DNA from: a virus
Lineage: Duplodnaviria; Caudoviricetes
Strand: one strand, 5' to 3'
Length of the DNA: 64,000 nucleotides
IMG/VR virus record: IMGVR_UViG_3300029288_004596
Span: 128,001 to 192,000 of that record
In this document: in pieces, positions 6,973-57,888 of the stretch
Layout: each line of letters opens with the position of its first letter
How positions within the stretch are numbered: the stretch's first letter is position 1
The notes under the pieces: generated by a model
Databases searched by the model: none
What the model was told of the DNA's origin: nothing
What the model saw: only the letters and a program-made list of their open reading frames with translations
Program-made: the position numbers and the translations under genes

Positions 6973-7485
6973 ATGGATATTGCTAAGAAACTGGCCGAGA
7001 TAGTGGCCCCCTACAACTTTAAGCTTGAACTGAGAACTGAAGGAATCTACTTAGTCTTTCCTGACGAGACTGTCTCTGACAAGCTTAAAGGGTCAGCTAT
7101 AGAAGAAGTGGTTGACGGTGCCCTAGATATTGTTTCTGAATACTATACTAGTAGAATGAAAGGTTCACATAAGATTGTCACGGAAATAGCTCACACTAGA
7201 GACGAACTTATAGGCTGCAGGGCTGGTGATGTATACAGGGAACTCAAAAGCATCATACCAGTAGAGTGTGGCATTATAACCCAAGCCTCTTCAGGCGTCA
7301 TTAAGATATATTGTCATGGAGTCTTTACTGACATTAGCGTTCAGAGATACTACCTCCAGCATGGCAAGGATAGGTATATCTCAGCTATCAAAGAAGATGT
7401 GGCCTTTCTTATAGAAGACGGACTTCGTAAGCATGAGGTGGCGGTTGAGAAATCCAAGGAGGTCTTGGAGTTATTGAGGTCATGA
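6973..7485 (+). CDS. Hypothetical protein
   Basis: 170-aa ORF with GGAG RBS. Confidence 0.6.
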   Translation: MDIAKKLAEIVAPYNFKLELRTEGIYLVFPDETVSDKLKGSAIEEVVDGALDIVSEYYTSRMKGSHKIVTEIAHTRDELIGCRAGDVYRELKSIIPVECGIITQASSGVIKIYCHGVFTDISVQRYYLQHGKDRYISAIKEDVAFLIEDGLRKHEVAVEKSKEVLELLRS

Positions 7486-9567
7486 GGATAGAGGACTCCC
7501 CAGCATATGATCTCTTTGACCATACTATCTTAGTCGCTGTATATGAAGGGGCGGATATTATCTGGGATAATTCTGGGGTGACACTCTTTGAAATCCTTGC
7601 TTACTTCCCAGATAAAGGGTTTAGTTTCAGGTCCTTCGCCTGTCAGTCCTTGGACTCAGTGGAACTTTATGCCAAGATTACAGACCGCATGTCCTTCGTC
7701 CCTACCAAGGATGAGATGTTGTTCCACTTGATATGGTGCCTTGATAGGCCAAGTATAACTATAGTGTCCAACTCCCTTATAAACTGGTGTGCCAGAAGGG
7801 AGGCTATACTTCCTGAGGAGAACTACGAAGAATGAGAGTAGAAGGATCCCCTGTGTACAGATACTTTCCTGAGTTGGCTCTTAAGGTATATAAGGATGTA
7901 GATATCGTTTGGGACGCTTCCACCTTGGGGATCTGGAATGTCCTAGCTTACTTCCCTGATAGGGGCTATGGCTTCAGGTGCAACTCTGTTGACCAGGACG
8001 CCAAGATAAATTTCATAACAGGTTACATGGATTTTATCAGAGACCCTGATGATGTCATTGAGTATATGATGGAGCATGTTTCTGAAGAACACTTCGAGGA
8101 TTTTGAGAAGACCTTTTCACAGTGGCTTGAAAATAAGGCCGTAAGGGATATGTTGGCGGAAGGAGACTACGAGGAATGAATGTAGAGGATTCCATTATAT
8201 ATGAGATTCTCCCCAAGCTTGCCGTTGACGTATACTTGGAAGCTGATATTATTTGGGACATCTCAGATAGGAAAGTCCTGGAAGTCTTCGCTTACTTCCC
8301 CGACAAGGGTTTTGGTTTCCGGTGCTGTCTTATAGGGGACATTATATCTAAGTCTTATGTCACAAATAACATGAAGTTTGTAAAGACCCCCGCTGACGCT
8401 ATTCAGTACATGAGGAGGTCCCTTACTCCTGTGAGTTTTGCCTCCTTCCAGAAGGCCTTCGTCAAATGGATTGACAAAACTAACTATGTCGAGGGCATGA
8501 TAATAGGAGGAGACTGGGAAGAATGAAAATAGAAGACTCTCCAATATATGGACATGCCAGCCATGAGTCCCTGAATAGGGTCTATGGGTCAGCCGATATC
8601 ATATGGGATATCTCCACTAAGGGTTACCTTAAGATCCTGGCTTACTTTCCAGTTAGCCAGCTCTTTGGTTTCAGGTATTGTAAGATAAGCAGCAACCTTA
8701 CCGCATCTTATATCTTGAACTACATGCATTGGGAGAAGACCCCAGACTCCATGGTCAAGTATGTGAGGGGACTGGCATTCCCAGGAGATGTTGCTGGTTT
8801 TATAACCGCCTTTGCCAAGTGGATGGCTGATAATGCCTATGGAGTTGAGGAGAACTGGGAAGAATGAACATCAAAGATTGCGCTATAGCCAAGCTGGGAA
8901 CAGTGGGTTCTACCATAGCAGAGATATATGGCACAGAGAATGTGATCTGGGACTTTTCCCATGTGTCTTATCCTAGCTCTGTAGAGGTTGACATCATGTT
9001 CTTTATGGGTGGGCGTTATGTCCATAAAAGAGTGTGCATAGCCTGTCCAGCCTATGTCATTGATATCCTGGAGGATATGACTCTCCATGATATAGTCCTT
9101 GATAGTAAGGAAGCTTTATTAAAGTATGCTTTTAATCTGGACTCTAGCCTGGGGTTTAAGCATTATACCTCAGTGGTTGAGTCTTTGTGTCTCCAAGGGA
9201 ACTATGAGGAATGAATATTAAAGATTGTCCAGTGTATCAGCGATGGTCCAAGCCCACCTTATCCAAGGTGTATGAGGGCGCTGATATTATATGGGATGGC
9301 TCCAATGAAGAGCTCTTAATACTCTTAGCTTATTTTCCTGATAAGGGCTTTGGTTACAGAGCCTGTTCTTATAGCGTTTTGACTGAGAGATCTCTCCTGA
9401 AGAACATGCAGTATGAGGAGAACATCAACGACATGATTGAATACCTCTCAGAACGAGTTTCTACTGAGGAGATGGATACGCTGTCTGAACGTCTTGCCAT
9501 GTGGCTCATTAAACATAACTACACTATCATAGATGGAAAACTTGAAACTGGAAACTGGGAGGAATAA
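7482..9567 (+). repeat. Tandem paralog array A, block 1 (6 CDS, ~115 aa, ..EE tail)
   Basis: CDS 7482-7835, 7832-8179, 8176-8526, 8523-8867, 8864-9214, 9211-9567; M.IEDSP..Y..ADIIWD.S...AYFPDKG.GFR; all end [ND][YW]EE; internal junctions are ATGA overlaps. Confidence 0.9.
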
Positions 9568-9569
9568 TT

Positions 9570-10568
9570 ATGGAAAGAGTTCTGGCTTCTATTAGGGAAG
9601 TGAGTGACATTGTCCCTATAGAAGGAGCAGATTTTATAGAAGAAGCTATCGTGGGCGGATGGCATGTCATAGTAAAGAAGGGCGAGTTCACCCCTGGGTC
9701 TCAGGGTGTGTTCTTTGAAATAGACAGCGTGTTGGACCCGGAGCTTCCTTGGGTAAAGGAACATGCTTCTTTCATGGAAGCCAGGTCTTGGAGAATTAGG
9801 ACCATGAAGATGAGAGGCGTCCTATCTCAGGGTCTTTTACTTCCTATGGATATACTTCCTGAGGTTCCAGAAAGTACAGACTGTACTGAATTGTTGGGGG
9901 TCAAGAAGTATGAGATTCCTGAGACTGTAGGCGACTTGACCAGCAGATCTGCTGGTCCATTCCCATCTTACATAGTATCTAAGACAGATGAGATAAGAGT
10001 TCAGTCTGTCATGGAAGTCCTAGATGAGCTATGGGGTAAACCTTATTATATCACTGAGAAAGCTGACGGTTCCAGCGCCACTTACCTGATGATAGATGGC
10101 AAGTTCACCGCCTGCTCCAGGAACCTTATGCTTAGAGAAGAGAGCGACTTCTACAGGGTGGGAGTGGAACAGAATATAAAGGGATTTCTGGAAGAGAATC
10201 CCCACCTGGTAGTTCAGGGAGAGTTTATAGGACCAGGAGTGCAGGGTAATAAGTACAAACTTAAGGCCCACAGCCTCAAGGTGTTTAATATCTTTGACAC
10301 TGGTCCAAGGGAGTACCTCCACTACAACTCTATAGTGGACTTCTCCCAGCATTATGGTTTTGATATTGTCAGACTCATGGCTTCAGGAAAATCCTTTGGT
10401 TTTTCTCTGGAAGAACTTTTAGTCATGGCCAAAGGCAAGTACCCTGGCACTAACAATGACATGGAGGGCATAGTGGTCAGGTCCTTGGAGAATATCTATA
10501 GCCCTACCCTTAGGGGTAGGCTTAGCTTTAAGGTCCTTAACAACAATGCCCTGCTTAAGGAGAAGTGA
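9570..10568 (+). CDS. RNA ligase (Rnl2-like, DRB0094-type with N-terminal OB domain)
   Basis: Motif I EKADGSS, CSRN, QGEFIGPGVQGN, EGIVVR, FKVLN; N-terminal I.PIEGAD.IE...R.RT.K.RGVLSQGL. Confidence 0.9.
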   Translation: MERVLASIREVSDIVPIEGADFIEEAIVGGWHVIVKKGEFTPGSQGVFFEIDSVLDPELPWVKEHASFMEARSWRIRTMKMRGVLSQGLLLPMDILPEVPESTDCTELLGVKKYEIPETVGDLTSRSAGPFPSYIVSKTDEIRVQSVMEVLDELWGKPYYITEKADGSSATYLMIDGKFTACSRNLMLREESDFYRVGVEQNIKGFLEENPHLVVQGEFIGPGVQGNKYKLKAHSLKVFNIFDTGPREYLHYNSIVDFSQHYGFDIVRLMASGKSFGFSLEELLVMAKGKYPGTNNDMEGIVVRSLENIYSPTLRGRLSFKVLNNNALLKEK

Positions 10569-10569
10569 G

Positions 10570-10986
10570 ATGATTAACTTGGAATCCTTCACTCTTAGAT
10601 TAAATAAACAGTTTTGTTCTGTGTGTTATGGCAACCTGTGGTCTGCGACCCTTAAGGCGGTAGACAACTCTTGTATAGAGGTCACTCTCAGATCTGAGGG
10701 GAAGACTTTTACCGAGAATGTGGCGCTGAGTTCCTGCCTTAACCCTGAAGATAACTCTGTAGACTTCCCTAAGCTTCTCAGGGAAGTGTTCAAGAGTCTT
10801 TATTTATCCATTGACCTCAGGTTAGGGGAGTTTGTGGAGCTGATATGTTCCACTCCTATAGTTAAGGCTAAGGTTGGGGATGAACCTGACGAGGCGGTTG
10901 TCGCTGTCAAGAATAGGTATGATCTTAAGTGCCTTAGAGAAGGCTTGAAGACTTTGTATGAGGATGTCAAGAAGGAGTATTCATAA
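10570..10986 (+). CDS. Hypothetical protein
   Basis: ORF after ligase; GGAG RBS. Confidence 0.55.
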   Translation: MINLESFTLRLNKQFCSVCYGNLWSATLKAVDNSCIEVTLRSEGKTFTENVALSSCLNPEDNSVDFPKLLREVFKSLYLSIDLRLGEFVELICSTPIVKAKVGDEPDEAVVAVKNRYDLKCLREGLKTLYEDVKKEYS

Positions 10987-11163
10987 TGAGAACTTATTTG
11001 GAAACTGGCAAGAATCATGCTATCCTTGTAGAGTCTGATGCTCCTAAAGAGTCTATGACTAAGGAGAAGATAATAGAGTCCTTGGAAAAAGAGGGGATAG
11101 GTATTGTTGTAGGGTCGGATCCTAAGCAGAATAAGAGGACAGTTGTTAGACCAAGGAGGTAAT

Positions 11164-11703
11164 ATGGAAAGGATTATAGTAAGCAGAAACCCTGAGATTA
11201 TAAAGTTTATTCGTTCTAAGATAGGTTATCAAGTTCCTGTGCTGCCTCTGGCTACCACCAAGGAACTAGAAGGCAAGATAGTCTATGGCAATGTGCCTAT
11301 GCACTTGGCCAAGAAGGCTGCCAAGGTGGTGGTTATAGAGTGCGGCAATGGCAGGATAGTGAGTTCAGACTGGACCTGCGAGGACATGATAGCCGCAGAG
11401 GCTGACTTTAAAGAGTATGTAGTGTGCAACGCTCCTGGGGAGGTGGATGGGTTCATGGATGTGGATGTAGACTGTGACTGTTTTGGGCACAAACTAAGTC
11501 TATCCTATGACAACACCCCTCCTTACCAGACCCTTAGCATCTCTGTTTTTTCCAGAGGATACAGGTGTGGCTTGTCTTTCTGGGAGAAGATAGTTGGCAC
11601 ATGGAGACTGCTTAGAGGAGAGTGGGTCAGGCAGTGGGATGTTGTCCTGTCTGTGGAGGAAATCAAAAGGCTCAAGGAGTACTTTGATTCTATAGAGGCA
11701 TGA
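11164..11703 (+). CDS. Hypothetical protein with Csx16-like N-terminal domain
   Basis: IIVSRN...GKIVYGNVPMHLA...VVVIE...T.EDM resembles the Csx16/VVA1548 pattern; AGGAGG RBS. Confidence 0.45.
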   Translation: MERIIVSRNPEIIKFIRSKIGYQVPVLPLATTKELEGKIVYGNVPMHLAKKAAKVVVIECGNGRIVSSDWTCEDMIAAEADFKEYVVCNAPGEVDGFMDVDVDCDCFGHKLSLSYDNTPPYQTLSISVFSRGYRCGLSFWEKIVGTWRLLRGEWVRQWDVVLSVEEIKRLKEYFDSIEA

Positions 11704-14700
11704 AAATAGAAGAGACTTCTACATTTGCTAGAGGAGACTATAGAGTGAGGGGAGAGTTGATAGATGTGTATGATGACGCAGACATCTTATGCGATGGCGC
11801 CTCCACAGAGGTCGTCACTATTATATCCTATCATCCTAGGGAGAATGTCCTGAGATATGCTGGGGTTATTCTCCCTATAGATCCTATGAGGACGGCTGAA
11901 ACTATAAGGACTTACTGGGACACATACCCGCTGGAATCTTCCGTGGATTTCTCTGTGTCTTCCCACTTCTGTTCCTTTCTGCGAAGGGAAGCTGGCCAAG
12001 TCCTGAAAGATTGGATGATATCTAGGGGATATGTAGAAGAGTCTAGACATTCTTGGATTCTAGGAGACTTTGAGGAATGAAGATAGAAGAGACCCACACA
12101 TATATCAGAGGAGACACCTATGTCAAGGCAGCCCTGGTTGAATTCTACGCTGACGCTGATATTTTATGTGATGGTCCATATTCTGACACTATCACTATTC
12201 TTTCGTACCATTCTCAGGATAATGCCTTGAGGTATGCGGCATTCTTTATCCCTGGCATTACTAGCCGCGTCTCTGAGGCTTTGAAGAGTTATTGTTCAGT
12301 GGTTCCCTTGGAGTTGTCCATGGACTTTAATGATATTCCTCACTTGTGTTCTTTTCTGGCGGGAGCTCCTGGCGAGGTCCTGAAGGAGTGGATGACGGTT
12401 AGAGGATACTCTAAGAAAGAGAATGGATCTTGGGTTCTGGAGGATCTGGAAGAATGAAGATAGAGAACTCTATAACATTTGCTGATGCTCCTGACCCTGT
12501 AAGGGTGGCTCTTTTACAGCTGTATGAGGACGCTGATATTCTATGTGAGACGGTCGCTTCCTGTTGTCTTTATCTTCTCTCTTATCATCCTCAGGAGGAT
12601 GTCTTAAGATTTGTAGCTGTCAAGGTAGAGGGTTATCATCAGCATCAGACTCGCGCTCTTGTCGAGAGATACTGGCATACTTATACTCTGGATCCTGTTA
12701 TGGATTTCACCAAGGCTGTTTATCTGAACTCATTCCTCAGGAATGAGAGACACAGAGGCGTCTTAGGAAACTGGCTGGAATCTAGGGGATACTATTCTTG
12801 CGGGGAACTTGCTTGGTCCCTAGGAGAGATAGAAGAATGAAAATAGAGGACACGAGAACCTTTGCTGAGGCGGAGGAATCCACCAAGGTGTCCCTTTTAG
12901 AAGCGTACTCTGATGCGGATATCCTTTTCGATATTCCTCAACCCTCATCCCTTCTTGTGTTGTCCTATCATCCTCAAGAGAATGTTCTCAGATATACCGG
13001 AATCATTCTTACAGACAAGGCTAAGCGCTGCGTCCATGAGGCTATCAGGGAATACTGGGATACCTTTCCCTTGGATTTCACAGTCGACTTCTCAAGTCCC
13101 CATTGGTTTCTTGCATTCTTGAGAGAGGGAGGAGACGCCCCTTTGAGCTCCTTTATGTTCTCAAAGGGTTATACTCTTCAGACAGGACACATCTGGCAGC
13201 TGGGGGACCTGGAAGAATGAAGATAGAAGATTCTGACGCCTATGCTATGGTGAGGACAGCAGTGCAGACGGCCCTGTCAAGATTGTATGCTGGCGCAGAT
13301 GTCCTTTCTTTCGTGGCGTCTGCCAACTGCGTTTACATTTTATCCTATCATCCCTTAGAGAACGTCTTAAGGAATGTGGCGGTGTGGATTCCCAGCGATT
13401 ATAGGTCTAGTATACATGAGCTTATAGAGACTTTCTGGGATACCTTTTCTCTGGGAGTTACTGTGGATTTCTCTGGAGATCATCGCTTTCATCTTAGCAA
13501 CTCTAGTCAGCTGGTTCTGGATAGTTGGATGATGTCCCGGGGGTATAGCAGGGAAACCAATGATGTTTGGGTGTTAAGGGACTTAGAAGAATGAACATAA
13601 TAAACTGCAATTCTATGTTAACCTCTGTCCCTCTTGTTATTAGAGAGGTCATACACAACATATATTCTGACGCCAGTATCATATGGGATCACTCCTTTGT
13701 GTTAAAGGATTCCTCCGGAACAGATAAGTTTGCTTTGGATATCTTTGCTTATCTACCTGACGGCAGGTTTGTTTACAGATACACTGAGCTGGATCCCACT
13801 ATGTCCAGAGGAGAACTTAGCTATGATATAGTTAACCACTGGACCGCTAGGAAAAACGAAGATGATGCTGTTGGATACGTCAAGGGTCTTGAGCATAATG
13901 GTTGGTTTCCTCAGAAGGTGATGTCCATGGCAGCATGGCTTGAAAATAAACATTTGGAAGGAAATTATGAAGAGTAATATACAGGATTCTCCAATCGCCA
14001 GAATAGGTAGTTATGGACTTTCTATATCTACTATATACAGGGACATGGAAGTAGTGTGGGACTTCTCCAATGAGGAGTATGTAGATCTCATGATCTATGA
14101 TCCCAAGGATAAGGTGTTCAAGTACAGGTGTACTGAGATAGAAGAGGACTGGTCTCCCCATGATATAGAGCAGGACCTCAAGGCTCACAGCGATGTGTTG
14201 ACCTCTATACCAGAGGTAGTCAATTACTGCGGATATCGTAGGGGGCAGGAACATGTTCAGGCCCTAAAGACTTGGTTAAAGGACAATGACTATACCTTTG
14301 ATGGATTGAGATGGAAGAAGAGCTTTGACCCTTCGGAGAACTATGAGGAATGACAAAGGCTGAGTGGGCAGAGTACTATAGCTCAGGCAACCTTGTATAC
14401 CCCGAACTTGTGGAACCGTTGTCTGAGGCTTTGGATGGGTATGACCTGATATATGAGAACTCATGTGTCCAGATGGAGTTTCCTGAGTGGACTAAGATAG
14501 AGGTCCTGGCTTATAACCCAATGCTTTCTAGGTTTATTCTCATATATCAGAGCGCTGGAGTCCAGATGGATATGGAAGATCCCGTAGCTCTAGTAGCTAA
14601 CGCTTCCACTTATTATTTTTCTCTGGAAGAAATCCTATCTGAGACGGACTATGAAGATACCTCTATTGCGGCTCTCCTCTTATGGGTAGGCAAGTCAGAT

Positions 14701-17432
14701 ATCAGATTTCTAGGGGATACCTATATTAAAGGTGGGTATGAAGAATGAAAGTAGAGGAGTCTCTGGTCTCTAAGCTTGGGACTACAGGGAAGAAGGTAGT
14801 CCAATTCTTTAGTGGTTTGGAGGTAGTCTTTGACTACTCAGCTAAAGATGAAGAAGGTGTCATGCTAGACTTTATATTGTACTCTCCTGTGACCAGAAAG
14901 TTTTCCTCCTTCTATGGAATGATAGGACATGATAAAGATGTCATTGTGGCTCTTGAGTATGATACTCAAGTTGTAGATGGACATAGACTGGCTGCCTGGT
15001 CCAGGGGCATGTCTCCCAGATATATTGACTCTGTAGATTCCTGGTTCCAGGCTAATGGTTACTCCATGGATGGAACAGAACTTCCTCTAGAGGGGGATTA
15101 TGAAGAGTGAACATAGAAGATTCTGTAGTTTCTACTCTTGGGGACATGGGGAGACAGGTAGCCGAGTACTATAGAGGTTCAACTGTAGTCTTTGACTTTT
15201 CACACTCAACTAATGATGGCATACTGGTAGATCTTATAGTGTGCTATCCTAACCCCAAAAGGTTTTGTTCCTGCTATACCAACTTGGATGCTGACAGGGA
15301 TGTAGCTGAAGAACTTGAGGAGGAGAACCTATCTATACAGGATACTGAGGAGTTAGCCGCTTATGGGGCTGGCATGTCTTTCAGTTATTCAAAGGCTGTG
15401 ACTTCTTGGTTGACTAGCCATGGTTACTATAGAGATGGAACTGAAGTAGCGCTGGAAGGGAACTACGAAGAATGAAAGTTGAAGAAGGTCCTGTGGCTGA
15501 ACTGGGTAGACTGGGAATAGCCATGGAACAGATGTATAAGGGCTTTGACGCTGTGTGGGACTTCTCCCGCGTTAAGGATGGGAGTTATCTCCTGGATATT
15601 CTTATTTATGATCATCTGCTGGACAATTTTATGTATAGGTTTGTGTTCCTGGATCCCTTCCGTTCTATTCAGTCTTATAAAGACATCTTTCAGACTTACA
15701 AGGATACACTTGATAGCCCCGAGGAACTTATAAAATACATCCGCCACTTTTCCGACTATGTAACTGAGGGTCCCAAGTATGAAGCCAAGCTAAAGGAGTG
15801 GTTCAAAGGCAGAGGGCTTCTCTATGATGGGGATAGTGTGGTTCCTCTCCTTGACCCCAAAGATAACTATGAGGAATGACTATGGAAATACATGACTCTC
15901 CCGCAGGCAAGTTTACTGGCAGGTTAGGTAGACATATAGTAGACCTCTATGATGGTCAGGATGTAGTCTGGGATTTCTCTTATGATGACGGCAAAGATAT
16001 AACTGAACTGGACTTTGTAGTATACTGTTCCTATACGGATGTATTCACCCATGTGTATTCCACCTTTGACTGGGACACTCATGATATTGAGGAAGAGCTT
16101 AGGGAAGTTCAGCATACTGTGGCAGGAGTCCATGAGTTTGTGGATGAGATTACTGAGTATACACTTAATTATGTGTTCTCCCAGGATCATCTGAATGCCC
16201 TCTATGATTGGCTATCTAACCATGGATATATGCTAGTAAACAGCAAGTGGGTTAAACCTTTAGAGGGAGACTATGAAGAATGAATATTAAAGATAGCCCT
16301 ATAGCTAAGTTGGGTACTACTGGAGCTAATGTAGCTAATTATTATAAGGACATGGATGTGGTGTGGGACTTCTCCAGGGAAACAGATGCTGGAAATGTCG
16401 CTATTGATCTTATGGTGAATAACCCTGTCACTGGAGTTTCCCTGTTCAGACGCAACACTCTTAGCAAAGACCTTTCCTACAATAGGCTAGTTAGCAATTT
16501 ACAGGTTTATAGTTCTGTGCTGAAGACTATAGGAGATCTCCAAGTTTATGTTAGCACAATGGATCAGGTATATAAGAATGCTTTTAGGGACTGGATGGTT
16601 GCGTCTGGTCATGTGCATACAAAGAATGGGTGGGTAAAACTCTTGCAGGGGAACTACGAAGAGTGAATATTAAAGACTGTCCTATAGCGACGCTAGGGAG
16701 CTTTGGTAGGAACGTAGCTAAGTGCTATGAGAATATGAATGTAGTCTGGGACAACTCCAATCTTGAGCTTAGCGGGCAAGTGCTCCTTGACCTCATGGTC
16801 TTTGATCCTGACACAGGGCGTTTCTTACATAGGCTTAATACTTTTGATTATAATCTTCCTTACAAGGAAGTGGCTTATACCCTCAGGACCTATAGTTCTG
16901 TCATGAAGGACCTAGAGGATCTCCTTCGCTATGTTGATCTCAGGAGTTCAGCAGACAAGAAGAATGTCAAGGGATGGCTTACTGCCAATGGTTATGTGTA
17001 CACTGGTAAGGAATGGATTAAGTGCTTGCAAGGAGACTATGAGGAATGAACATAAAAGATAGTCCTATAGCTAAGCTGGGTATCTTTGGAAGCAATGTGG
17101 CCTTCATATATAAGGACATGGATGTAGTCTGGGATTTCTCGGAAAAGTATGATAATAACAATGTAACCCTTGACCTTATGGTTTGTACTCCTCACACTGG
17201 AACCTTTGTTCATAGACGCAGCACTTTTAGAATAAACCTTCCTTATGAGGCGGTGGCTCATGATCTTCAAGTGAATAGTTCTGTGAAAGATAGCGTAGAC
17301 GAACTCCTGTCTTATGCTGACAGAATTGACTCTGTGCACATGAATGTTGTTAAGAACTGGCTGCTCGTGTCTGGTTACATGCAAACTAAAGAAGGATGGG
17401 TTAGACTCCTAGATGGAAATTATGAAGAATGA
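11700..17432 (+). repeat. Tandem paralog array A, block 2 (15 CDS, ~120-135 aa, ..EE tail)
   Basis: CDS 11700-12080, 12077-12457, 12454-12840, 12837-13220, 13217-13594, 13591-13977, 13967-14353, 14350-14748, 14745-15110, 15107-15475, 15472-15879, 15876-16283, 16280-16666, 16663-17049, 17046-17432; shared M.I[EK][DE]..Y..AD[IV]/VVWDFS...Y.P...W...GY; all end hydrophobic-EE. Confidence 0.9.
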
Positions 17433-17614
17433 ACATAAAATTAACTGATAAACAATCTGAACTGCTATTGTCCCTGGTCTATAACTCTTATAAGTTTACC
17501 AAGGACCCCGACTGCGCCAGGTCTCTGGAGACTCTGTATGATTCCCTTAAGGATCAGGTGAGCCCTGAAGGGTCTTCTTGTCTGGGGATGCTAAGACATC
17601 TGTTTGAGGTGTAG
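17429..17614 (+). CDS. Hypothetical protein
   Basis: 61-aa coupled ORF. Confidence 0.5.
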   Translation: MNIKLTDKQSELLLSLVYNSYKFTKDPDCARSLETLYDSLKDQVSPEGSSCLGMLRHLFEV

Positions 17615-17616
17615 AC

Positions 17617-17802
17617 ATGGACTATTGTGTATGGGAACAGTTCTCTGAACCAGTCACTAATGAGGGACATATAGGATATGCTCCCTCCTGTATGGCTCCA
17701 GTGATGGTGCTGCCAGAGGAGGATATAGCTGAGATATGCCCCCACTGTGATAAGCAGATACTCAGGAGGAAACATGTGCCTGACCATAGAGAACGCTCCT
17801 GA
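17617..17802 (+). CDS. Small Cys-rich (Zn-ribbon-like) protein
   Basis: C.W...PSC...CPHC; GAGGTG RBS. Confidence 0.5.
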   Translation: MDYCVWEQFSEPVTNEGHIGYAPSCMAPVMVLPEEDIAEICPHCDKQILRRKHVPDHRERS

Positions 17803-18838
17803 CTATGTCATGGAGCAAGTCCAGGATATCTTTAAGGACTGTGAGATAATAGTCAACAAGTCGCATGTCTGCGGTCTGACTATTGTGGTAAATATTCTAG
17901 GTTTTGAGGCTCCTAGCACCTTTAAGTTGCTATACCATTGCTTTTCTGAGCCGCAGACCCTTTATAAATGCCTGAGAGTTTATAGTTCCACTATAGAACT
18001 TGTCGACGCTGTCTTTGATTTCCAGGGGAATGATGAACTTGAAGGTTTTGTCAAGTGGCTAGCTACTAGGGGTGATTATGAGAGTTGAAGAGTCTAAGTG
18101 TTATAGTTTGTTTTCTAAGGAAGCCCAGAAGGCTTTATCCTCTAAGTATGCTGGGGCTGACATTATTTTGGATCTATCTATGGAATGCTCTTCCAGGGAA
18201 CGAAAACTTACTACGTTCTCCTATCACCCACAAAACGATATGGTAAGATTTGTTGGGGTCTATCTGTACTATAATGCAAGTCCAGAGCATGTGGAGAGCA
18301 CCATAGACCAATATGGGAAATCATTTAGGTTAGGATTGAATCCTTGTCTAAGGGATATAATGCACCACCCTTTTATTTGTGAGGAGCCAGTACAGACTGT
18401 ACTGGATTCCTGGATGATGTCCAAAGGATACCTTCCTACAGGATATTTTGAGTGGGTCCTGTCTGAAGACTTAGAGGAGTAGCCATGAGTCTTAAAAGTT
18501 GTCCTGAGCTATACAATCAGATCTACCCCCTCATTGGCTACGAAGTCATATGGGATGACAGCTGTGGCAGCGACAGAAAACTCTTTACCGATATGTTGAT
18601 GTATAATATTGTGACTCGCAAGTTTGTTCACTGTGATAAGAGTTTTCATCAGCCCACTCCTGAGGTTTTTAGAGCTGAGTTCTTCTTCCACTTGAAGGTT
18701 TATGATTTCCCGGAAGAAGTCTTGTATTTCCTGGGACCCACGCACACTAAAGTCCTTAAATCTTGGCTTGTATCCAATGGCTGGAAGAAGAGAAGGTGGG
18801 GCAAGTGGCGTCCCCCAAAGATAAGTTATGAGGAGTAA
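17774..18838 (+). repeat. Tandem paralog array A, block 3 (3 CDS)
   Basis: CDS 17774-18088 (ends GDYES), 18078-18482 (SYHPQND, ends EDLEE), 18485-18838 (VIWDDS, ends SYEE). Confidence 0.8.
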
Positions 18839-20406: not shown

Positions 20407-20630
20407 AAGTGTACCTGTTAGTTTCAGAGGATGACTATAACACAGAGTACAGAGTATTCTTGGACCCTAAGAAGGCTAGGGAAATCTTTATTAGTAAGGT
20501 GGAAGAGATGGGCTTTACCACTGAGATTACTAGTGAAGAGTCTGGAGAACTGTATTTTGATTGTGAGTGGGGACACTATAGTCTCACTCCTGTAACCGTA
20601 GAAGATATTGATGAGGACCTAGAGTCTTGA
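20403..20630 (+). CDS. Small acidic phage protein
   Basis: MKVYLLV..D.....VF....KA pattern; tail EDLES. Confidence 0.6.
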   Translation: MKVYLLVSEDDYNTEYRVFLDPKKAREIFISKVEEMGFTTEITSEESGELYFDCEWGHYSLTPVTVEDIDEDLES

Positions 20631-23853: not shown

Positions 23854-23871
23854 CGCAAGGAGAACCTGACA

Positions 23872-24813: not shown

Positions 24814-24937
24814 CCGCCTTGCTCTCTTTGTGTTATTATATTGTAGGTGCATAAGATGAACTTCTTTCCTATATTAGCATGTGTCCTTGTGGGCATGTCC
24901 ATTATTATGATCCTTGTATACTTCTTAAGTAGGCGCC

Positions 24938-46840: not shown

Positions 46841-47579
46841 TAACAAGACTCATAGATATGAGACTATAGACGATCTGACTGGGGCTGTGATTGATACAAA
46901 CCCTATTCCAGTTTCTAAGAAGGATAACAGGACTCCTATTGAGCTTACCTCCATGGACGCCAGACAACTGGTGCCCCATTCAGCTACGCCCAAGTATGAG
47001 TTCTCTCTAGATCCAGGCATTATAGTTTCCAGAGAAGTTTTGCAGAGACTGAGATTTTATATAGGTCTCACAGACACTGAAGTAGGCTGGTATGGACTGG
47101 TCAAGAGGAGAGGGTGGCACTTCTATCTTTATGATGTTTTCCTGCCAGAGCAGGATGTGCACTCCACAACCACTGAACTAACCACTCAGGGTCAGGCTCA
47201 GACTATGAATGACATCATAGCCAAGTATGGGCCTGATGGACCCAATGATCTAAAGTTGTGGGGTCATTCCCATGTCAAGATGGGCACCTCTCCTTCCGGC
47301 CAAGACCAGGATCAGATGGATCAGTTTGAGAAGAATGGAGCTCCCTGGTTTATAAGGCTCATAGCCAATAAGATGGGGAGAATGGAGTTCACTATCTTTG
47401 ACTACAAGCAGCACATAGTGATTTCCGACTGCCCATGGGTGATAGAGGAAACTAAGGACACTGAGTTTGAGAAGGCCATAGCTGAAGAGATGTCCGCTAA
47501 GGTGTTCTCCAAGTCCTATCAGACTTATAACTCTCAGGGTCAGGATTGGTATAAGGGTTATAAAAACTATGGACTTTAA
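46821..47579 (+). CDS. JAB/MPN+ (JAMM) metalloisopeptidase
   Basis: TEVGWYG catalytic Glu and exact HxH-x7-S-x2-D motif HSHVKMGTSPSGQD. Confidence 0.85.
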   Translation: MAMRCYNNKTHRYETIDDLTGAVIDTNPIPVSKKDNRTPIELTSMDARQLVPHSATPKYEFSLDPGIIVSREVLQRLRFYIGLTDTEVGWYGLVKRRGWHFYLYDVFLPEQDVHSTTTELTTQGQAQTMNDIIAKYGPDGPNDLKLWGHSHVKMGTSPSGQDQDQMDQFEKNGAPWFIRLIANKMGRMEFTIFDYKQHIVISDCPWVIEETKDTEFEKAIAEEMSAKVFSKSYQTYNSQGQDWYKGYKNYGL

Positions 47580-48240
47580 CAGGCAACTCTCAGTCCTTGA
47601 TCCGGGGAAAATATATTCTAAGAGAATCGACCTCATAGGAGTTGGGGCTACTGGTTCCTACATAGCCTGGCTCCTGTCTAAGATAGGAGCTGGGTGTCTC
47701 CACCTATGGGATGGGGATGAGGTCTCTGATGTGAATATCTGCAATCAGATGTTCAGGGAAGACCAGGTGGGAAGACCTAAGGTCCTGGCTGTGAGTGAGA
47801 TGATAAAGGCTGGCTCCGGCATCAAGGCCAATATGCACATGCAGATGATTGAAGGCAAGGAAGAGCTGGGGGAGATAGTGTTTCTCCTCACAGACTCCAT
47901 GTCTTCCAGACAGGCAATATGGGACTCTTGCATTAAAGGGTCTTGCTCCCTTATGATAGAGACAAGGATGGGAGCTGATGAGGGACGGGTCTATGCTGTA
48001 GATCCTAAAGACGAGAAACAGTGCGCATGGTGGGAAGCCACCCTGTGCAAGGACGAGGAGGCCCAGGTATCCGCCTGCGGAACTTCTATGTCCATAGCTC
48101 CCACTGCCGCCTTGGTAGCTTCTGTGGCAGTATGGCAGCTAATAAAGTATCTGAATGAAGACTACATAGAACATGGTCTGGTATTCACCACCAAAAATTT
48201 CAATATTTTCGAGCAGAAAGTAGGAGGACGACATGGTTAG
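47569..48240 (+). CDS. ThiF/E1-like adenylating enzyme
   Basis: RQ, IGVGATGS, DGDEV...N..NQ, G.PKV, TDS..SR, ETRMG, candidate catalytic Cys in SACG. Confidence 0.9.
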   Translation: MDFNRQLSVLDPGKIYSKRIDLIGVGATGSYIAWLLSKIGAGCLHLWDGDEVSDVNICNQMFREDQVGRPKVLAVSEMIKAGSGIKANMHMQMIEGKEELGEIVFLLTDSMSSRQAIWDSCIKGSCSLMIETRMGADEGRVYAVDPKDEKQCAWWEATLCKDEEAQVSACGTSMSIAPTAALVASVAVWQLIKYLNEDYIEHGLVFTTKNFNIFEQKVGGRHG

Positions 48241-48436
48241 AATTTATGTTCCTGGAGCGCCAGTGAGAGAGGTTGCTTGGCAGCCTGGCATGACAGTGGC
48301 GGAGGCTTGCTCCGCAGCTGGAATAGTCCCAACAAACTATGATGTGCAGTTGGCTGGTTTCCCAGCTCAGCTGGAAGACACCATAGAGACAGAGGACGAC
48401 GCTATCACCCTGGCCACCAGAATCAAAGGAAACTAG
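48233..48436 (+). CDS. Ubiquitin-like (beta-grasp) protein
   Basis: 67 aa, GMTVAEA...AGI...L.G.PA.LED.I...D.ITL, ends RIKGN; directly after E1. Confidence 0.8.
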   Translation: MVRIYVPGAPVREVAWQPGMTVAEACSAAGIVPTNYDVQLAGFPAQLEDTIETEDDAITLATRIKGN

Positions 48437-48466
48437 CAGTTAACAACTGCTACGCTAGGAGAATCT

Positions 48467-48769
48467 ATGGCTTATAGAATTAGACCTCTGGGGAATTATG
48501 TGGTTATCAAACTACATGAGGAAGCGGAGAAAACTACCGCGGGAGGGATAGTCCTTCCCGCGTCTACTATGCAGAGACCCTCTCTCGCTGAGGTTATGGA
48601 AGTGGGACCGGGTCTCGTGAACATCAATGGCAAGACAATCCCTGTCTGTGTAAGCCCTGGAGACAGCGTGCTCATAAACAGACACGCCCCTGTTGAATGG
48701 GAGCTTCCAGATGGAAGCAAGATTCACATAATACCAGAGGGAGACATAATTGCCATTATCTCAGAGTAG
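48467..48769 (+). CDS. groES: Co-chaperonin GroES
   Basis: IRPLGNYVVI...TAGGIVLP...AEV.EVGPG...V.PGD.V...DIIAII. Confidence 0.92.
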   Translation: MAYRIRPLGNYVVIKLHEEAEKTTAGGIVLPASTMQRPSLAEVMEVGPGLVNINGKTIPVCVSPGDSVLINRHAPVEWELPDGSKIHIIPEGDIIAIISE

Positions 48770-48777
48770 GAGATACT

Positions 48778-50199
48778 ATGGATTATTGTTTTGTGCATGA
48801 GCCTGATGAAGCTAGGCTCAAGGAACTTATGAGATTGTATGATGGCGCTCCCTACTCCCTCTCTGATGGACGGAGGGGGGCGCTCATACCTTGGGATAAG
48901 CTGGACACTTTGTTCCAGAGATTCCTGAATGTGAACTATGACAGTATAACTGAGTCCGGACACAATGGGATAGGTATGCTGGATACTCAGTTGAACTGGG
49001 GAGACAGAGACCCTGCGGCTGTGGCTAGAGTAGTTCAGAGCGAAGAGAAGTTCAGAGCCAAGTGGGGTTTTAGTCTTTCGGAGTGCCAGTCCCAAGCTTC
49101 TTCAGATTATATCAATAAGAAGATGGCCTCCAATCCTGTTATGCAGACTACCTCTAAGGTCGTATCCTGCAACGCTCCTTATGTAGCTTCCGACATGGCT
49201 TATCTTTCTGATGTCATTCAGGCTAAGGTCAACCTGCCAGTGTCAGTGTACTTTGGGAGTTCGCCTCAGAACTTCAGCGGGCTATCTGTCTACTGGAGTC
49301 CCTGCGAGCCTTTGGCTGGGAAGTTTGTGGCTGATGAGATACCAGCTCCTAACGCCAAGTATATATCAGGCACTAAGCCTATAAACGACGCGTCCGGGAA
49401 TCTGATAGCCTGCACCAACTCTTCCCTTATAAGGCTGTTCTTAGTGGCCAACAAGGGGATAGCATATAACCCTTCCATATATGACTACATAGCTGAGAAG
49501 TTTGCGGATATAGTCAAGGAAGAGTGTGGGTCTCTGGATTTGACCACCATCAAGGTTAGGGAACTGGCCAATAGAAGAGCTAAAGCCAGGCTTTCGTCTA
49601 TAGCCTCTGAACTGAAGTCTGAGAGATCCAGGATGGATACTCTTCAGAAAGACTTCATTGAGTCCTGCTCCAAGTACAATGAGAAGCTGGGAATTTACAC
49701 AGACCTCAACTCAGGCAGCACAGAGTATATAGACAACATAGTCAGGAAGGTGTCTTCCATAGCGGCTATTCCAGAAGTCGCTTCCTGGAGATTGGAAGGG
49801 GATAAGCTGGAGTTTTCCACCAAGATGCTTTACGCCTTTGACCCAAGGACTGCTCAGGTCAGGAAGATTGGGGAGATGTTTGTCTCTGTAAACACCTCTG
49901 ATGGTTTCATCAAGGTGACCAATATGTCTTGGACAGTCAGGGGATGCGAGAGCGGAATGCAGGCTCCTCATGTGTTCCCAGATGGAAGACCATGTCTTGG
50001 TCAGCTGGGAACTACCACAGGACCTATGATTGCGGCCATGGACTATGGTCCGTTGGTGTCTTCTATAATAACATATCTTCAGAGTGCCAATGTAGAGGAC
50101 TCGGCTGGCAAGTATGTCCATCGGTGGCCGCTGGCTAATGAGAAAGAAACTGAGGCTTTCAAGGAGAAGTATGCTCATCTATGCTCAATGAAGCCTTAA
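48778..50199 (+). CDS. Coiled-coil protein with C-terminal E2 (ubiquitin-conjugating)-like domain
   Basis: APHVFPDGRPCLG (HPN-like triad then Cys) followed by two helices; AGGAG RBS before ATG 48778; operon context. Confidence 0.7.
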   Translation: MDYCFVHEPDEARLKELMRLYDGAPYSLSDGRRGALIPWDKLDTLFQRFLNVNYDSITESGHNGIGMLDTQLNWGDRDPAAVARVVQSEEKFRAKWGFSLSECQSQASSDYINKKMASNPVMQTTSKVVSCNAPYVASDMAYLSDVIQAKVNLPVSVYFGSSPQNFSGLSVYWSPCEPLAGKFVADEIPAPNAKYISGTKPINDASGNLIACTNSSLIRLFLVANKGIAYNPSIYDYIAEKFADIVKEECGSLDLTTIKVRELANRRAKARLSSIASELKSERSRMDTLQKDFIESCSKYNEKLGIYTDLNSGSTEYIDNIVRKVSSIAAIPEVASWRLEGDKLEFSTKMLYAFDPRTAQVRKIGEMFVSVNTSDGFIKVTNMSWTVRGCESGMQAPHVFPDGRPCLGQLGTTTGPMIAAMDYGPLVSSIITYLQSANVEDSAGKYVHRWPLANEKETEAFKEKYAHLCSMKP

Positions 50200-52926: not shown

Positions 52927-52960
52927 AGGGGAGTCCCTTTATGGGGCTCCTCTTTTTTTT
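52927..52960 (+). terminator. Rho-independent terminator
   Basis: GGGGAGTCCC-TTTAT-GGGGCTCCTC hairpin followed by T8. Confidence 0.85.
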
Positions 52961-52970: not shown

Positions 52971-53285
52971 ATGGTCAATATGGTAGTTGTCTATGGGGTC
53001 ATAGGCGAGGAACCCACGGAAGTAATCAGCAGAAACAATGTGAGGATAGTGTCCTCCAAGCTGAGCATAGAAACCAAGGGGAAATTTCATTCCCTGGAGA
53101 TAAAGTGCTTTGGGGATACGGCCTCTTCTTTAGCTTGTCTTGTGGTAGGGACTCCTGTTATAATACAAGGGAGACTTGATGTTTCCGAGTGGGAGTACAT
53201 GGGCAAGCAGTACTCCAAGATAGCCCTTGTGACCACCGATATAACAGTGGTTGGAAGGGCCGCTGAAGATCCATGGGAGGTCTAG
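52971..53285 (+). CDS. Second, short SSB-like OB-fold protein
   Basis: N.VVVYG.IGEEP...IKCFG..A...G..VIIQGRL...W. Confidence 0.75.
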   Translation: MVNMVVVYGVIGEEPTEVISRNNVRIVSSKLSIETKGKFHSLEIKCFGDTASSLACLVVGTPVIIQGRLDVSEWEYMGKQYSKIALVTTDITVVGRAAEDPWEV

Positions 53286-54728
53286 ATGGATTCTCCATAC
53301 AGGTTTGAGACGTGCCCTTATTGCTGGGGACGCGGCAAGATTATTGGTTCCACTACTTCAGCCACATACAGTATTCACCCCAGCCTATATATTCAGTGTG
53401 GTCATTGCCAAGGCTCGGGACAAGTTTTAGTCAGAAGTTCTGAGGATGACTATGAGGAATGAAGGTTTTCTTTACAGGTTTAATGAGAACTCTGTGAAGT
53501 GCTCTTACTGTGGAGGGGAAGGTTATCTTAACCCAGCATATAAAGCTGTCATTGGGAATATGAAACCTGTGGATATTCCATGCCCAATGTGCTGTGGCAG
53601 CGGGTGGATTAACTTGGAGGAGGAGACGCTCCATGGCAATTATGAAGAGTAAGGTTTGTCCTAGATGCTATGGCACAGGATCTGGCTATACAAGCGTTTC
53701 TACCACTATCTCTACTACCGCTGGCACAACATGCACCTTTGGACCAACGATCTGTCCTCTATGCGAAGGGGATGGAGTTATATATGTTAAGGACGCTAAG
53801 CTAGGTAATGTAGTTACTGTAGTTGAAGAAGAGAACTATGAGGAGTGAGCCTGTCAAGTGCCCCAACTGTCATGGGATGGGAGTAAAGATAGTGAACTTC
53901 AAGGTTCTTAAAGACTTATTAGAAGGAAAAATAAAACCTCCTCCAGGATCTGAGTTATTTAAGAAGTGTGAAGAGTGTGACGGTTCTGGGATCATGAATA
54001 TAAACCATAGCTGGGAGGAGTAGCCATGAAGGCCAAGAAATGTCCTATCTGCCAAGGGACCAAGGTAATCTTTGGCTACGTGGCCACAAGCATTTACTCT
54101 GTGGATTTTACCGTCTCCCCTGTATCTATTGGAACTGCTTCCATTCAACGCCCTTGCTCCTTCTGCGAGGGGATTGGAGAGGTGTATGTCCTGTCTAAGG
54201 ACGAGAGCTATGAAGAGTAGGTGTCCAGCCTGCGATGGAACTGGCATATCTGTGGTTAATGAAGACGCCTTGGAGAATTTGTTCACTGGCAAACCTGTGT
54301 CTAGGGATGTCACTATATTTGAGAAGTGTCCGGTCTGCAATGGCTCTGGGGATGCCGAGGAATACAACTGGGAGGAATAGTCCTATGAGGAGTGAAAAGT
54401 GCCCCAGATGTGGAGGCAGAGGAATAATCCTAGAAAAAGGTTATGTTAACGATTATATTATCTACTCCACCACTGTATCTTATACCTCCTGGACCTGCAT
54501 GGAGTGCAAGGGAACTGGACATATTCAGGTGGAGGAAGAGGATTGGGAGGAGTAGTTTTCAGAGCATGCCCAGCCTGCGGAGGTTCTGGAATAGCTTGCC
54601 AGTATGACTCAGATAAGCGCTTCACTAATATTATACAGTGTCCATACTGTAGTGGTTTCGGCAATATTATAATAGAAGGCATCAAGGATATGGTTGAGAT
54701 TTCTAAGGAGGAGAACTGGGAGGAATAA
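53286..54728 (+). repeat. Tandem array D (8 CDS, DnaJ-type CxxCxGxG zinc-finger mini-proteins, ..EE tail)
   Basis: CDS 53286-53462, 53452-53652, 53642-53848, 53838-54023, 54026-54220, 54210-54380, 54385-54555, ~54543-54728; two CxxCxGx[GK] motifs each; all end [YW]EE. Confidence 0.88.
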
Positions 54729-55987: not shown

Positions 55988-55996
55988 GGAGGATAT

Positions 55997-56431: not shown

Positions 56432-56670
56432 GCAGAACTAAAAACTCTGCCTGAGCAGGGGTCAAGTTTTTCTTGACTCCTGGGGTGTGCGGTTGGGTCA
56501 TTAGGTGTTGAAACCACCTTGGATCGTCGGTTACTTTATAGTGGCTGATGCTTATCAGGATGCTTCAGGATTCCGATCCTTTAAAGTTCAAAGCTTATAT
56601 AATGGAGCTCCTATTAAAAGGCATAGGCTGATTCCTTAAACCTTGGCTGACTCAACCCACCCCAAACTTC
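56432..56670 (+). ncRNA. Candidate structured ncRNA
   Basis: Non-coding gap with hairpin CAGGGGGTCAAG/CTTGACTCCTG and long-range stem GGGGTG..GGTTGGGTCA (56482-56500) / TGACTCAACCCACCCC (56648-56663) enclosing further hairpins. Confidence 0.55.
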
Positions 56671-56680
56671 GGGAGATAAT

Positions 56681-57888
56681 ATGGATCCTGGAACTGTTGT
56701 GAATACTATAGATAAGATGCTAGAAGGCACTGGATTCATAGCCAGAATAGCTATGAACGATTTCAAGAATGTCAATATCAGGTACATGTTTGGGGAGGAA
56801 GTTGATAGACCCTTGGTTGGAACCATAGATACGCGGAACGTTGAGTATAGAAGCATGGATAATATTATAGCAACTGTCAAGGAGATGACCTCCTCTTACT
56901 TGTGGAAAGAAATGAAGAAACTCTTGGATAGGCAGTCTGTTATAGACTCTAAGTTTTCTGGCGAAGATTATGAGGAATAGCCATGGACTATAGTTTTGTG
57001 ACCACAGTCCTGAATGTCGGGATGGAAGACTCCGGCTTCTACACCAGGATATTAAAAGACCACCCAGAGATTATAACTATCAGGCATAGGTTTGGACTTC
57101 CTAATGAAACCTGTCATGTAGGGTCTCTTAATGTACTGCACTTTGTGACTGGAATAGATGATATAAATATTACTGACATGGCGAACCAAGTTAAGTTGCT
57201 CATAGATAACTACCTGTCCTCTAAGATATTGGATCTCCAGCTTACCAGGGCTGGGTTTGACTATGCGCTTACTGAGGGGACTGAAAACTACGAGGAGTAG
57301 TCATGGCTTACACTATGGAGCTGGAAGAACATGCGGCTATGGCTTACAAAGTAAGCTGCAGTCTCCATGATGAGGGGTATCCTTTTTCAGTTTACTGGAT
57401 TGATAGCAAGGAGAGTTTCTGTGTGGAGGGTATCCCTATCTTCGAGACTACTAGAATATCCTTGGGAAGTGATATTCCTAACTATGATCTCATTAAGTCC
57501 ATGGCTATAACTTCTGTGGAGAGATACCTTGAATCTAAGAAAGACGATATCATCAGACTCCTGTATCTCTATGGAGGGTACACTCTTGAAGAATGACCCT
57601 AGAGAAGTGGCTAGGCTCTGCACCTACAGTATAGCCCGGCACCATAAGCATAAGCTTTATGTGCAGTGGGATATAAGCAGACAGCAGTACTTCGTGGATC
57701 ACCTCCCTATATTTAGCAATGTAAATTTGTACATAACCACTCTAGACAGCCCAGATGTGTCTGTGGCTACTCTCACAGGAGAAGTTATGGAAGCGGTCTC
57801 TCGTTTCCTGTATAACCAGTCCAAGAAGCTCGCAGAAGTTCTCCTGGACTATCCCCATGAGGATTGGGTATCCTATTGGGAAAAGTAG
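56681..57888 (+). repeat. Group E (4 small CDS with EE-type tail)
   Basis: CDS 56681-56980 (DYEE), 56983-57300 (NYEE), 57303-57596 (TLEE), 57586-57888 (YWEK); pairwise similarity (IR..FG...VG; PIF). Confidence 0.7.

Follow-up and report, generated by a model that had tools for sequence, protein, structure and literature searches.

In this study, we analysed a stretch of 64,000 nucleotides, referred to here as the window, which covers bases 128001-192000 of one viral contig of 216,899 bp. The contig originates from a metagenome assembly (ENA ERZ27247363, k141_3129331; an IMG/VR-type virus record, 93% complete). The plus strand of the window carries four groups of small, chained genes, families A, C, D and E, the products of which nearly all end in a hydrophobic residue followed by two glutamates and the stop codon. 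This shared end, called the tail in what follows, is present far beyond chance, stands at the extreme C-terminus and is found on unrelated folds. The genes that carry it, as well as those with near-variants of it, are listed below with their lengths in amino acids (aa); SD denotes a Shine-Dalgarno sequence and ORF an open reading frame.

7482-7835, 7832-8179, 8176-8526, 8523-8867, 8864-9214, 9211-9567 (+): family A, first sub-array, six genes, 114-118 aa, with the ends, in order, NYEE, DYEE, DWEE, NWEE, NYEE and NWEE
11700-12080, 12077-12457, 12454-12840, 12837-13220, 13220-13594 (+): family A, second sub-array, five genes, with the ends, in order, DFEE, DLEE, EIEE, DLEE and DLEE
13591-13977, 13967-14353, 14350-14748, 14745-15110, 15107-15475, 15472-15879, 15876-16283, 16280-16666, 16663-17049, 17046-17432 (+): family A, third sub-array, ten genes, every end [NDG]YEE
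17429-17614 (+): near-variant of 61 aa ending in LFEV, in which GAGGTG is the SD of the next gene
17617-17802 (+): small ORF without the tail, between two near-variants in array A
17747-18088 (+): family A member with the near-variant end GDYES
18072-18482 and 18485-18838 (+): two family A genes, ending in DLEE and SYEE, respectively
19109-19654 (+): remote member of the family A type, the N-terminus of which is extended by a hydrophobic stretch; near-variant end GDYEK
20403-20630 (+): acidic protein of 75 aa with the near-variant end EDLES
41240-41656, 41656-42117, 42117-42605, 42602-43060, 43060-43512, 43509-43949, 43946-44413 (+): family C, seven genes, 138-162 aa, all with LEE ends; predicted fold of two small beta-barrels
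52971-53285 (+): SSB-family OB-fold protein of 104 aa (Pfam SSB, E = 1.2e-5) ending in AAEDPWEV, a look-alike of the tail
53286-53462, 53446-53652, 53642-53848, 53838-54023, 54026-54220, 54210-54380, 54385-54555, 54504-54728 (+): family D, eight zinc-finger genes, 56-74 aa, with two CxxCxGxG motifs and [YW]EE ends throughout
56681-56980, 56983-57300, 57303-57596 (+): family E, ending in DYEE, NYEE and TLEE, respectively
57529-57888 (+): family E, near-variant ending in YWEK

The tail was counted by scanning every plus-strand stop-to-stop frame of at least 30 codons for the end [YWFLIMV]-E-E-stop. Exactly 41 frames were returned (23 in family A, seven in C, eight in D and three in E), which is the number of proteins in four groups that the initial annotation had given from inspection of the sequence, while the same scan of the minus strand returned one. 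Based on the internal frequency of such tripeptides (0.0027), 0.48 tails would be expected by chance among 179 genes. In the rest of the 216.9-kb genome, no hydrophobic-E-E end was found in a greedy gene call. The tail-bearing share was 7/7 in family C, 8/8 in D and 3/4 in E, as had been counted before, and 23/25 in A, where the 23 tails stood but the earlier denominator of 24 did not, since there are 25 members when those ending in YES and YEK are both included. Glutamate occupied 82 of the 82 positions at -1 and -2, and position -4 was D or N in 33/41 tails, which agrees with the previous description of the preceding residue. The near-variants described earlier (GDYES, GDYEK, EDLES, YWEK and DPWEV) were all recovered, and the FEV end of 17429-17614 was added to them. 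Furthermore, none of the eight recognisable enzymes checked (RNA ligase, MoxR ATPase, vWA-metallopeptidase, sigma factor, E1, RNR, EndoVII and UvsX) carried the tail, as had been asserted. In the greedy gene set, the five-residue motif was C-terminal 30 times and internal only four times; together with the flexible ends of the modelled proteins, this indicates that the free-end position seems to be part of the signal.

The pattern of codon use showed at which level the tail is conserved. The glutamate at -2 was encoded by GAG in 22 and GAA in 19 cases and that at -1 by GAA in 29 and GAG in 12, and the third-base heterozygosity at -2 (0.50) was practically that of the internal Glu codons of the same genes (0.49). 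Position -3 was restricted to Y, W, F, L and I, which were, however, encoded by ten codons (TAT, TAC, TGG, TTT, CTG, CTA, CTT, TTA, TTG and ATA), and all three types of stop codon occurred after the tail. These counts bear out the codon variation noted at first sight, and they also answer the synonymous versus non-synonymous comparison that had been proposed: the amino acid is fixed while its third base is as variable as the background. The information content was limited to the five tail codons and the stop, with 1.8-1.9 bits at codon positions 1 and 2 and 0.8-1.0 bit at position 3, and in families C, D and E there was no conservation before position -15 or past the stop. An SD element would be conserved independently of frame and amino acid; here, the GAR-GAR lay in the same reading frame in 41/41 genes, codon periodicity was evident and the synonymous sites were free. 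Conservation at the nucleotide level only, which the initial annotation had named as the outcome that would undo its proposal, is thus not supported. The invariant glutamates, the free synonymous sites, the codon periodicity and the flexible end together indicate selection at the protein level, and it is highly probable that the tail is kept by selection on the protein sequence. In family A (7482-18838), the N-terminus was also conserved (M-[NKR]-[IV]-[EK]-[DE]), and the junction ...GAA TGA ANA TAG AAG A... combines the conserved end of one gene with the conserved start of the next.

The proteins that carry the tail showed no detectable relationship between families, and by sequence comparison the tail is the sole feature that these apparently unrelated folds have in common. 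BLAST within the window placed families A and C in separate clusters, and hhalign comparisons of A-C, A-D, A-E and C-E aligned the last five to six columns, i.e., the tail, or nothing, with probabilities of 0.2-7%. Within the tail-bearing families, the identity was 15-39%. The members of family A were 15-36% identical to the first one, their only invariant or nearly invariant columns being the two terminal glutamates and one tryptophan, and in families C, D and E the tail was among the few invariant columns. Most members of the tail families are acidic, with isoelectric points (pI) of 4-5. In the AlphaFold2 (AF2) model of family A (7482-7835; pLDDT 91.9), an alpha/beta fold ends in a long helix after which the last ~8 residues form a coil with a pLDDT of ~56, and in the model of family C the tail is a coil behind two small beta-barrels; the tail is therefore predicted to be a flexible, exposed end behind the fold. 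When the model of family A was submitted to Foldseek PDB, VIA-align wide and the ESM atlas, nothing above noise was returned, with a best Z of 4.8 and a best TM-score of 0.53 to an uncharacterised cluster, and for family C the fold search gave no more than weak rows of the tandem Tudor/Agenet/KOW kind. The members of family D, 56-74 aa in length, have two CxxCxGxG motifs with four invariant cysteines and belong to the DnaJ/anti-TRAP class of zinc fingers; a small zinc-binding Cys site of this kind was absent from families A, C and E. Family E gave no match.

Beyond this genome, relatives were practically absent. Word-indexed homology searches with families A, C and D found their own proteins only, besides two marginal DnaJ-type hits of family D (E = 6.6e-4 and 4.1e-3). 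A full hidden Markov model search of the family A profile against 1.84 billion representatives yielded 22 of its own proteins and one foreign protein of 615 aa (P0023), a marginal match (E = 1.2e-5) without a Pfam family, four repeated stretches of which align with the C-terminal half of that profile. The relatives of families A, C and D are thus confined to this contig. GenBank phages gave no match by DNA or by tblastn with family A and C members or with the 4-kb enzyme region, and the closest major head protein in IMG/VR was 31% identical.

Conservation at the protein level, the unrelated folds and the exposed terminal place fit the concept of a portable tag that is borne by a diversified library of cargo. 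We consider the tail to be a common C-terminal recognition tag with one shared reader, a reading to which we assign a probability of about 0.6. In this reading, [G/E]-[D/N]-hydrophobic-Glu-Glu-COOH would be a strictly C-terminal, solvent-exposed short linear motif that was either added to or kept by four mutually unrelated families of phage-specific paralogs: family A with its unclassified alpha/beta fold, C with a double beta-barrel, D with a DnaJ-type zinc finger and the unclassified family E. A basic pocket of the reader would grip the two Glu side chains and the terminal carboxylate, while a hydrophobic sub-site would take the residue at -3, and many different, mostly acidic cargo domains could thereby be brought to the same partner. 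Such gripping of a free, acidic, Glu-ending C-terminus by one reader is the reason why LysW, bS6 with RimK, tubulin with tubulin-tyrosine ligase (TTL) and the substrates of DCAF12 are the closest functional analogies. The SSB tip (DDDIPF) and the EEVD end of Hsp70/Hsp90 are likewise short, acidic-hydrophobic C-terminal docking peptides, the former with many partners and the latter with TPR readers. In these, however, the order is reversed with respect to the tail, in which the hydrophobic residue is followed by two glutamates and Glu is last; moreover, the 41 tail proteins are not SSB proteins, and only the product of 52971-53285, which ends in WEV, is SSB-like. The initial annotation had proposed a portable tag that docks a diversified cargo onto one receptor: the amino-acid-level, terminal and exposed nature of the tail and its four folds were substantiated, while no receptor was identified.

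Protein turnover in eukaryotes, chaperone networks and replication in bacteria all depend centrally on short C-terminal tags through which a single reader collects many proteins, and a virus that bears a tag of this type on 41 proteins with four unrelated folds is apparently undescribed in the literature searched; our general search on acidic tails in jumbo phages and on a C-terminal bias from translational coupling found nothing specific. If a single reader exists, it would be a hub for about a tenth of the genes of this phage and an entry to dozens of "dark matter" proteins. Because the tail is only five residues long, such a reader could be caught directly with a synthetic peptide.

Three plus-strand genes of the window were considered as candidate readers:

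38508-39605 (+): MoxR-type AAA+ ATPase, a candidate as a pair with 39602-40717
39602-40717 (+): metallopeptidase-vWA protein with the HEILH motif and an intact MIDAS (DTSGS...T...D)
47569-48240 (+): ThiF-type E1, in a putative ubiquitin-like conjugation operon (46821-50199)

The metallopeptidase-vWA gene lies between array C and a further array, B, that is described below. Its intact MIDAS, which is accompanied by HExxH, recalls the vWA-MIDAS ligand systems. The pair of MoxR and metallopeptidase-vWA has been described in jumbo phages (PMC7824862), and the vWA-metallopeptidase gene was found in 562 GenBank phage records. In the closest carrier of the pair, Thermus phage phiFa, 0/47 of the coding sequences checked ended in hydrophobic-E-E. 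The pair was rejected as tail-specific, as it is widespread in phages without the tail, phiFa among them. A complex prediction of the vWA-metallopeptidase with Mg, Zn and a family A member scored 0.00, which gives no verdict and was not used as evidence. The E1 was ThiF-like with a weaker similarity to PaaA and MccB, and the putative E2 of 500 aa had no informative match.

Searches of the 217-kb genome for known types of reader gave no match to RimK (PF08443), ATP-grasp_4 (PF13535), PafA (the Pup ligase), TPR_8 (PF13181) or PDZ_2, in each case with positive controls detected, or to Peptidase_S77 (the gp21-type prohead protease) and TTL, for which the positive controls were also undetected, so that these last two negatives carry no information. 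The purposes suggested for the tag at the outset, namely capsid loading, a chaperone, a protease or a scaffold, were neither supported nor refuted, and the same holds for the one receptor. The SSB-family protein 52971-53285, the EDPWEV end of which resembles the tail in a single case, is a candidate model of what the tail imitates. As no plausible reader was found among the phage genes or in common between tail-bearing phages, it is somewhat more likely that the reader is a host protein rather than a phage protein.

A motif similar to the tail was found in other phages. A scan of viral contigs for a DNA pattern that presupposes no homology, namely two ends of the form [DN]-x-E-E(GAA)-TGA spaced as in paralogs, gave one real case in 26 hits; two metagenome hits of the pattern were chance matches. 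The real case was a 92-kb fragment with 30% GC (G001, L040-L044), the proteins of which end in ...DP[YF]GEE[NS]WE[EQ]. A query with their last 30 residues retrieved five more AT-rich contigs and the 735-kb GenBank record LR756501.1 (L072-L102). In this record, the matches, which lay on both strands, numbered ~60 at an E of 1e-3 or lower and 107 when E was allowed to reach 10. The core of the motif in these huge, AT-rich phages is DPYGEExW[DE], with the longer form [KR]x[IV][FY]S[DE][ILVA]-D-P-[YF]-G-E-E-x-W-[DE]. It occurs on 3-6 carriers per contig in four contigs (G001; G002, L065-L071; G005, L064; G006, L051-L058), and it is the sole similarity between these otherwise unrelated small proteins. 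In 14 of the 27 frames with a visible stop it lies 0-3 residues from the C-terminus, and in the rest it is internal or near the N-terminus; one carrier is followed by a 29-nucleotide A-rich gap without an SD. Many copies end in EENWEE-COOH, which is identical to the end of 8523-8867 and 54504-54728 in the window. In contrast to the tail, the core of the huge-phage motif is DPYGEExW, while the final residues vary (WD, WEN, WDD, WEDNV). No DPYGEE-type motif was found in the tail-bearing phage genome, and no occurrence of DPYGEE in the literature searched. DPYGEExW[DE] thus resembles the tail as a portable acidic-aromatic motif but is not demonstrably the same tag; its presence on at least 60 proteins of the largest phage genomes suggests that a tag-and-reader logic may be general in large phages.

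Among the carriers, L064:6413-6829 (+) encodes a free-standing tail-sheath C-terminal domain of 138 aa (Pfam E = 3.6e-10) with the end DPYGEENWEE, next to a gene of 132 aa with a weak match to a gp23 major-capsid fragment. Whole-proteome blastp against the huge-phage contigs showed no obvious reader gene in common with this phage, the matches being a HAD phosphatase, MoxR, RNR, EndoVII and glycosyltransferases only. No SSB was found in the huge-phage contigs, and the vWA-metallopeptidase gene was absent from G002, a complete huge-phage genome that bears the motif. The small HAD/PNKP-type phosphatase, 42-52% identical, is present in this phage and two huge-phage contigs (L002:11988-12377 (-), L064:3298-3651 (+) and L065:433-783 (-)), and in G005 it lies directly upstream of the tail-gene array.

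Several points weigh against the interpretation of the tail as a tag with one shared reader. No reader was identified among the phage genes and candidates examined. The four families occur in one contig only, and so the 41 proteins effectively amount to four independent observations. The huge-phage motif, which has a different core and is often internal or extended, may be unrelated to the tail. At the two Glu codons alone, selection for a purine-rich GAR-GAR RNA and selection for Glu-Glu cannot be told apart. Lastly, all 41 tail genes are directly followed by another gene, with neither a terminator after any of them in our scan nor a long gap, and a role in coupling is hence inseparable by position. 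The sole strong intrinsic-terminator-like hairpin in the tail regions (52927-52953, 11 pairs, T8) stands directly after the RNR gene and ahead of the SSB-family gene.

Among the alternatives, the one that survives best, although we consider it unlikely, is a covalent handle, in which the terminal glutamate would be ligated by a host RimK/LysX-type ATP-grasp ligase or the tails would act as decoys that titrate this enzyme. Ribosomal protein bS6, to which poly-Glu is added, ends in GDSEE in E. coli, which is close to the consensus GD[YW]EE. The free C-terminal Glu-Glu of bS6 is the handle of RimK, which activates the alpha-carboxylate of the terminal Glu; RimK, LysX/ArgX and TTL all hold acidic C-terminal tails, with a conserved arginine at the terminal residue (PMC10375531). 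A further precedent is provided by LysW/ArgW, small zinc-binding proteins with 3-4 cysteines, the C-terminal EDWGE of which is read by the GSWGR of LysX/ArgX; their terminal Glu is the site of substrate attachment, and a single tail serves several enzymes (PMC10433800). Family D is similar in that it consists of small, four-Cys zinc proteins with tails such as EDWEE, ENWEE and DDYEE, in which the terminal Glu and the D/N-aromatic pair are present but E replaces the G of LysW. However, when the profile of family D was compared with PDB sequences (E up to 10) and NCBIfam (E up to 1), the hits were of the DnaJ zinc finger/anti-TRAP type and LysW was not among them, and the same tail is also present on three folds that are not zinc fingers. 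Moreover, this phage has no LysX-type ligase, in line with the missing RimK-family and ATP-grasp_4 genes, and bS6 is a single host substrate whereas here a library is concerned.

Only slightly less probable is that the tail is a degron or timer that marks early proteins for the host Clp, Lon or FtsH or for the ubiquitin-like system of the phage, and that the tail proteins are hence short-lived. To our knowledge, no bacterial protease or adaptor reads E-E ends. An exposed, flexible di-Glu end is what DCAF12 of CRL4 reads in its basic pocket, with glutamates at -1 and -2 on more than 40 unrelated proteins (PMC9929631), and the invariant glutamates of the tail and its predicted flexibility in the AF2 models are in agreement with such a C-degron. 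An E1-containing ubiquitin-like operon also lies amid the arrays, and the ends of a second array in the window (R-x-x-x-G) resemble Gly-end degrons and the ubiquitin tail. However, DCAF12 is part of a eukaryotic E3, and no WD40 reader is known in bacteria or in this phage. Furthermore, DCAF12 is tolerant at -3, with little preference, whereas this position is strictly hydrophobic here, and there was no experimental or co-occurrence tie between the operon and the tail.

We also considered the tail as a by-product of translational coupling, in which the GAR-GAR, the upstream GGNGAY and TATG would be kept as the ribosome-binding site and start of the next gene and the amino acids would be incidental. 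The usual SD of this phage is GGAG starting at -11 to -9. The 41 junctions comprise 25 ATGA/GTGA overlaps of 4 nucleotides, four TAATG overlaps of 1 nucleotide, six gaps of 2-3 nucleotides, three overlaps of 11 nucleotides and three others, and these five geometries corroborate the varied offsets of the next start that had been pointed out. The direct adjoining of each tail gene by the next one favours coupling, as do several details of the junctions. Where the spacing allows a workable SD (gaps of 2-3 nucleotides and TAATG), the codon at -2 was GAG in 10/10, placing GAGGA at the SD distance; against a 58% GAG background, our own arithmetic gives P ~0.004. The Gly-Asp codons provide GGAG at -14 of ATGA junctions, and four junctions take the ATG inside TAT-GAR as the start of the next gene, i.e., those of the 11-nucleotide class and a fourth one, from 53642-53848 to 53838, that was counted within the ATGA/GTGA class. 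Even the look-alike ends FEV and WEV are encoded by GAGGTN, which is a good SD.

However, in the ATGA/GTGA class, which makes up 25 junctions, the Glu codons are situated at -5 to -1, too close to the start to form an SD, and GAA predominates (at -2, 16 GAA and nine GAG). Complementarity to the anti-SD at the spacing of this phage was therefore found at ten junctions only, which upholds the earlier view that use as the downstream ribosome-binding site cannot fully explain the tail. The ATGA signature also marks 76 genes without the tail, which served as a control: their final residues were of 12 kinds, and none ended in E-E. SDs are used throughout the genome, yet no other gene ends in hydrophobic-E-E; the frame of GAR-GAR never shifts, position -3 varies only within its five residues and the conservation stops at five codons. 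Coupling as the cause of the tail is thus improbable. The use of the SD tracks the geometry of the junction while the amino acids stay fixed, which indicates that the same bases are in double duty: since the genes are chained by overlapping or abutting starts, the tail codons also serve the initiation of the next gene. In addition to its proposed role as a tag, the tail would then provide GAG-GAR as an SD ~4-6 nucleotides upstream, the ATG in TAT-GAR as a start and GAA-TGA for the ATGA overlaps. The doubling of GGAG/GAGG as an SD, which had been noticed before, is real but secondary, and the translational use of the tail codons is an overlay, not the cause of the tail. Dual coding is clearly illustrated by these junctions, where the bases that spell a protein motif also carry ribosome-binding signals.

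Array B (23500-37761), the second C-terminal class in the window, consists of ~75-90 chained mini-ORFs of ~41-130 aa, nearly all of which end in R-[CVNA]-x-x-G-stop, with many overlaps of 8 nucleotides. The ThiF-type E1 operon lies 9 kb downstream of it. In ubiquitin, R72 and G76 have the same spacing, with Arg at -5 and a terminal Gly, as the array B ends. Two orthogonal C-terminal codes (hydrophobic-Glu-Glu-COOH on the 41 folded proteins and R-x-x-x-Gly-COOH on the mini-proteins of array B) might be read by a phage E1/E2/JAB operon or a C-terminal-Glu ligase, with one library being conjugated to, or destroyed with, the other or host targets; this is quite improbable in our estimation. If it is true, it would be a viral counterpart of the eukaryotic logic of C-end degrons and the ubiquitin tail (di-Glu and Arg/Gly ends), and possibly one manifestation of a system of acidic-aromatic tags that is general in large phages (DPYGEExW[DE]).

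The sheath, the HK97-like major head protein, the portal and the large terminase are encoded on the minus strand within the first ~105 kb of the genome. The plus strand of the window carries the RNA ligase, MoxR ATPase, metallopeptidase-vWA, ankyrin proteins, the sigma factor and the ThiF-type E1 as well as RNR, the SSB-family protein, EndoVII and a UvsX/RecA recombinase, and downstream of the window Pol A, the clamp loader, the beta-clamp and UvrD are found. The gene order bears on the possibility that the tail is an address for capsid loading and ejection, which docks cargo to a component of the head core. Phage T4 loads internal proteins via a short targeting peptide, giant phages pack families of paralogs, and hydrophobic-x-E-COOH is the P3-P1 product of (L/I)-x-E cleavage by T4-type prohead proteases. 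However, the arrays sit with genes of replication and nucleotide metabolism on the strand opposite to the structural module, the tail is encoded and is not a cleavage product, and no gp21-type protease was detected in a search without a positive control, and we regard this address as very unlikely.

The least probable is a nascent-peptide effect in cis, in which the last residues would tune termination and re-initiation and be relevant in the exit tunnel only: it would account for amino-acid conservation confined to chained genes, and the last two residues do influence the efficiency of termination, but all three stops and five junction geometries are in use, the 76 other coupled genes lack the tail, and the hydrophobic -3 and the D/N at -4 are left unexplained.

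Two other observations were made in the window. Between arrays A and B lies an ORF of 402 aa (21685-22893) without a Pfam match, the protein-language-model look-alikes of which are all C39-type peptidases, with a noise-level score of 0.78. Additionally, four genes in 1865-4392, two of which are paralogs, end in an acidic residue and tyrosine, all followed by TAG (DIEY, 1865-2386; SFDY, 2928-3347; PFDY, 3356-3787; RREY, 4084-4392), and these ends may constitute a third C-terminal class.

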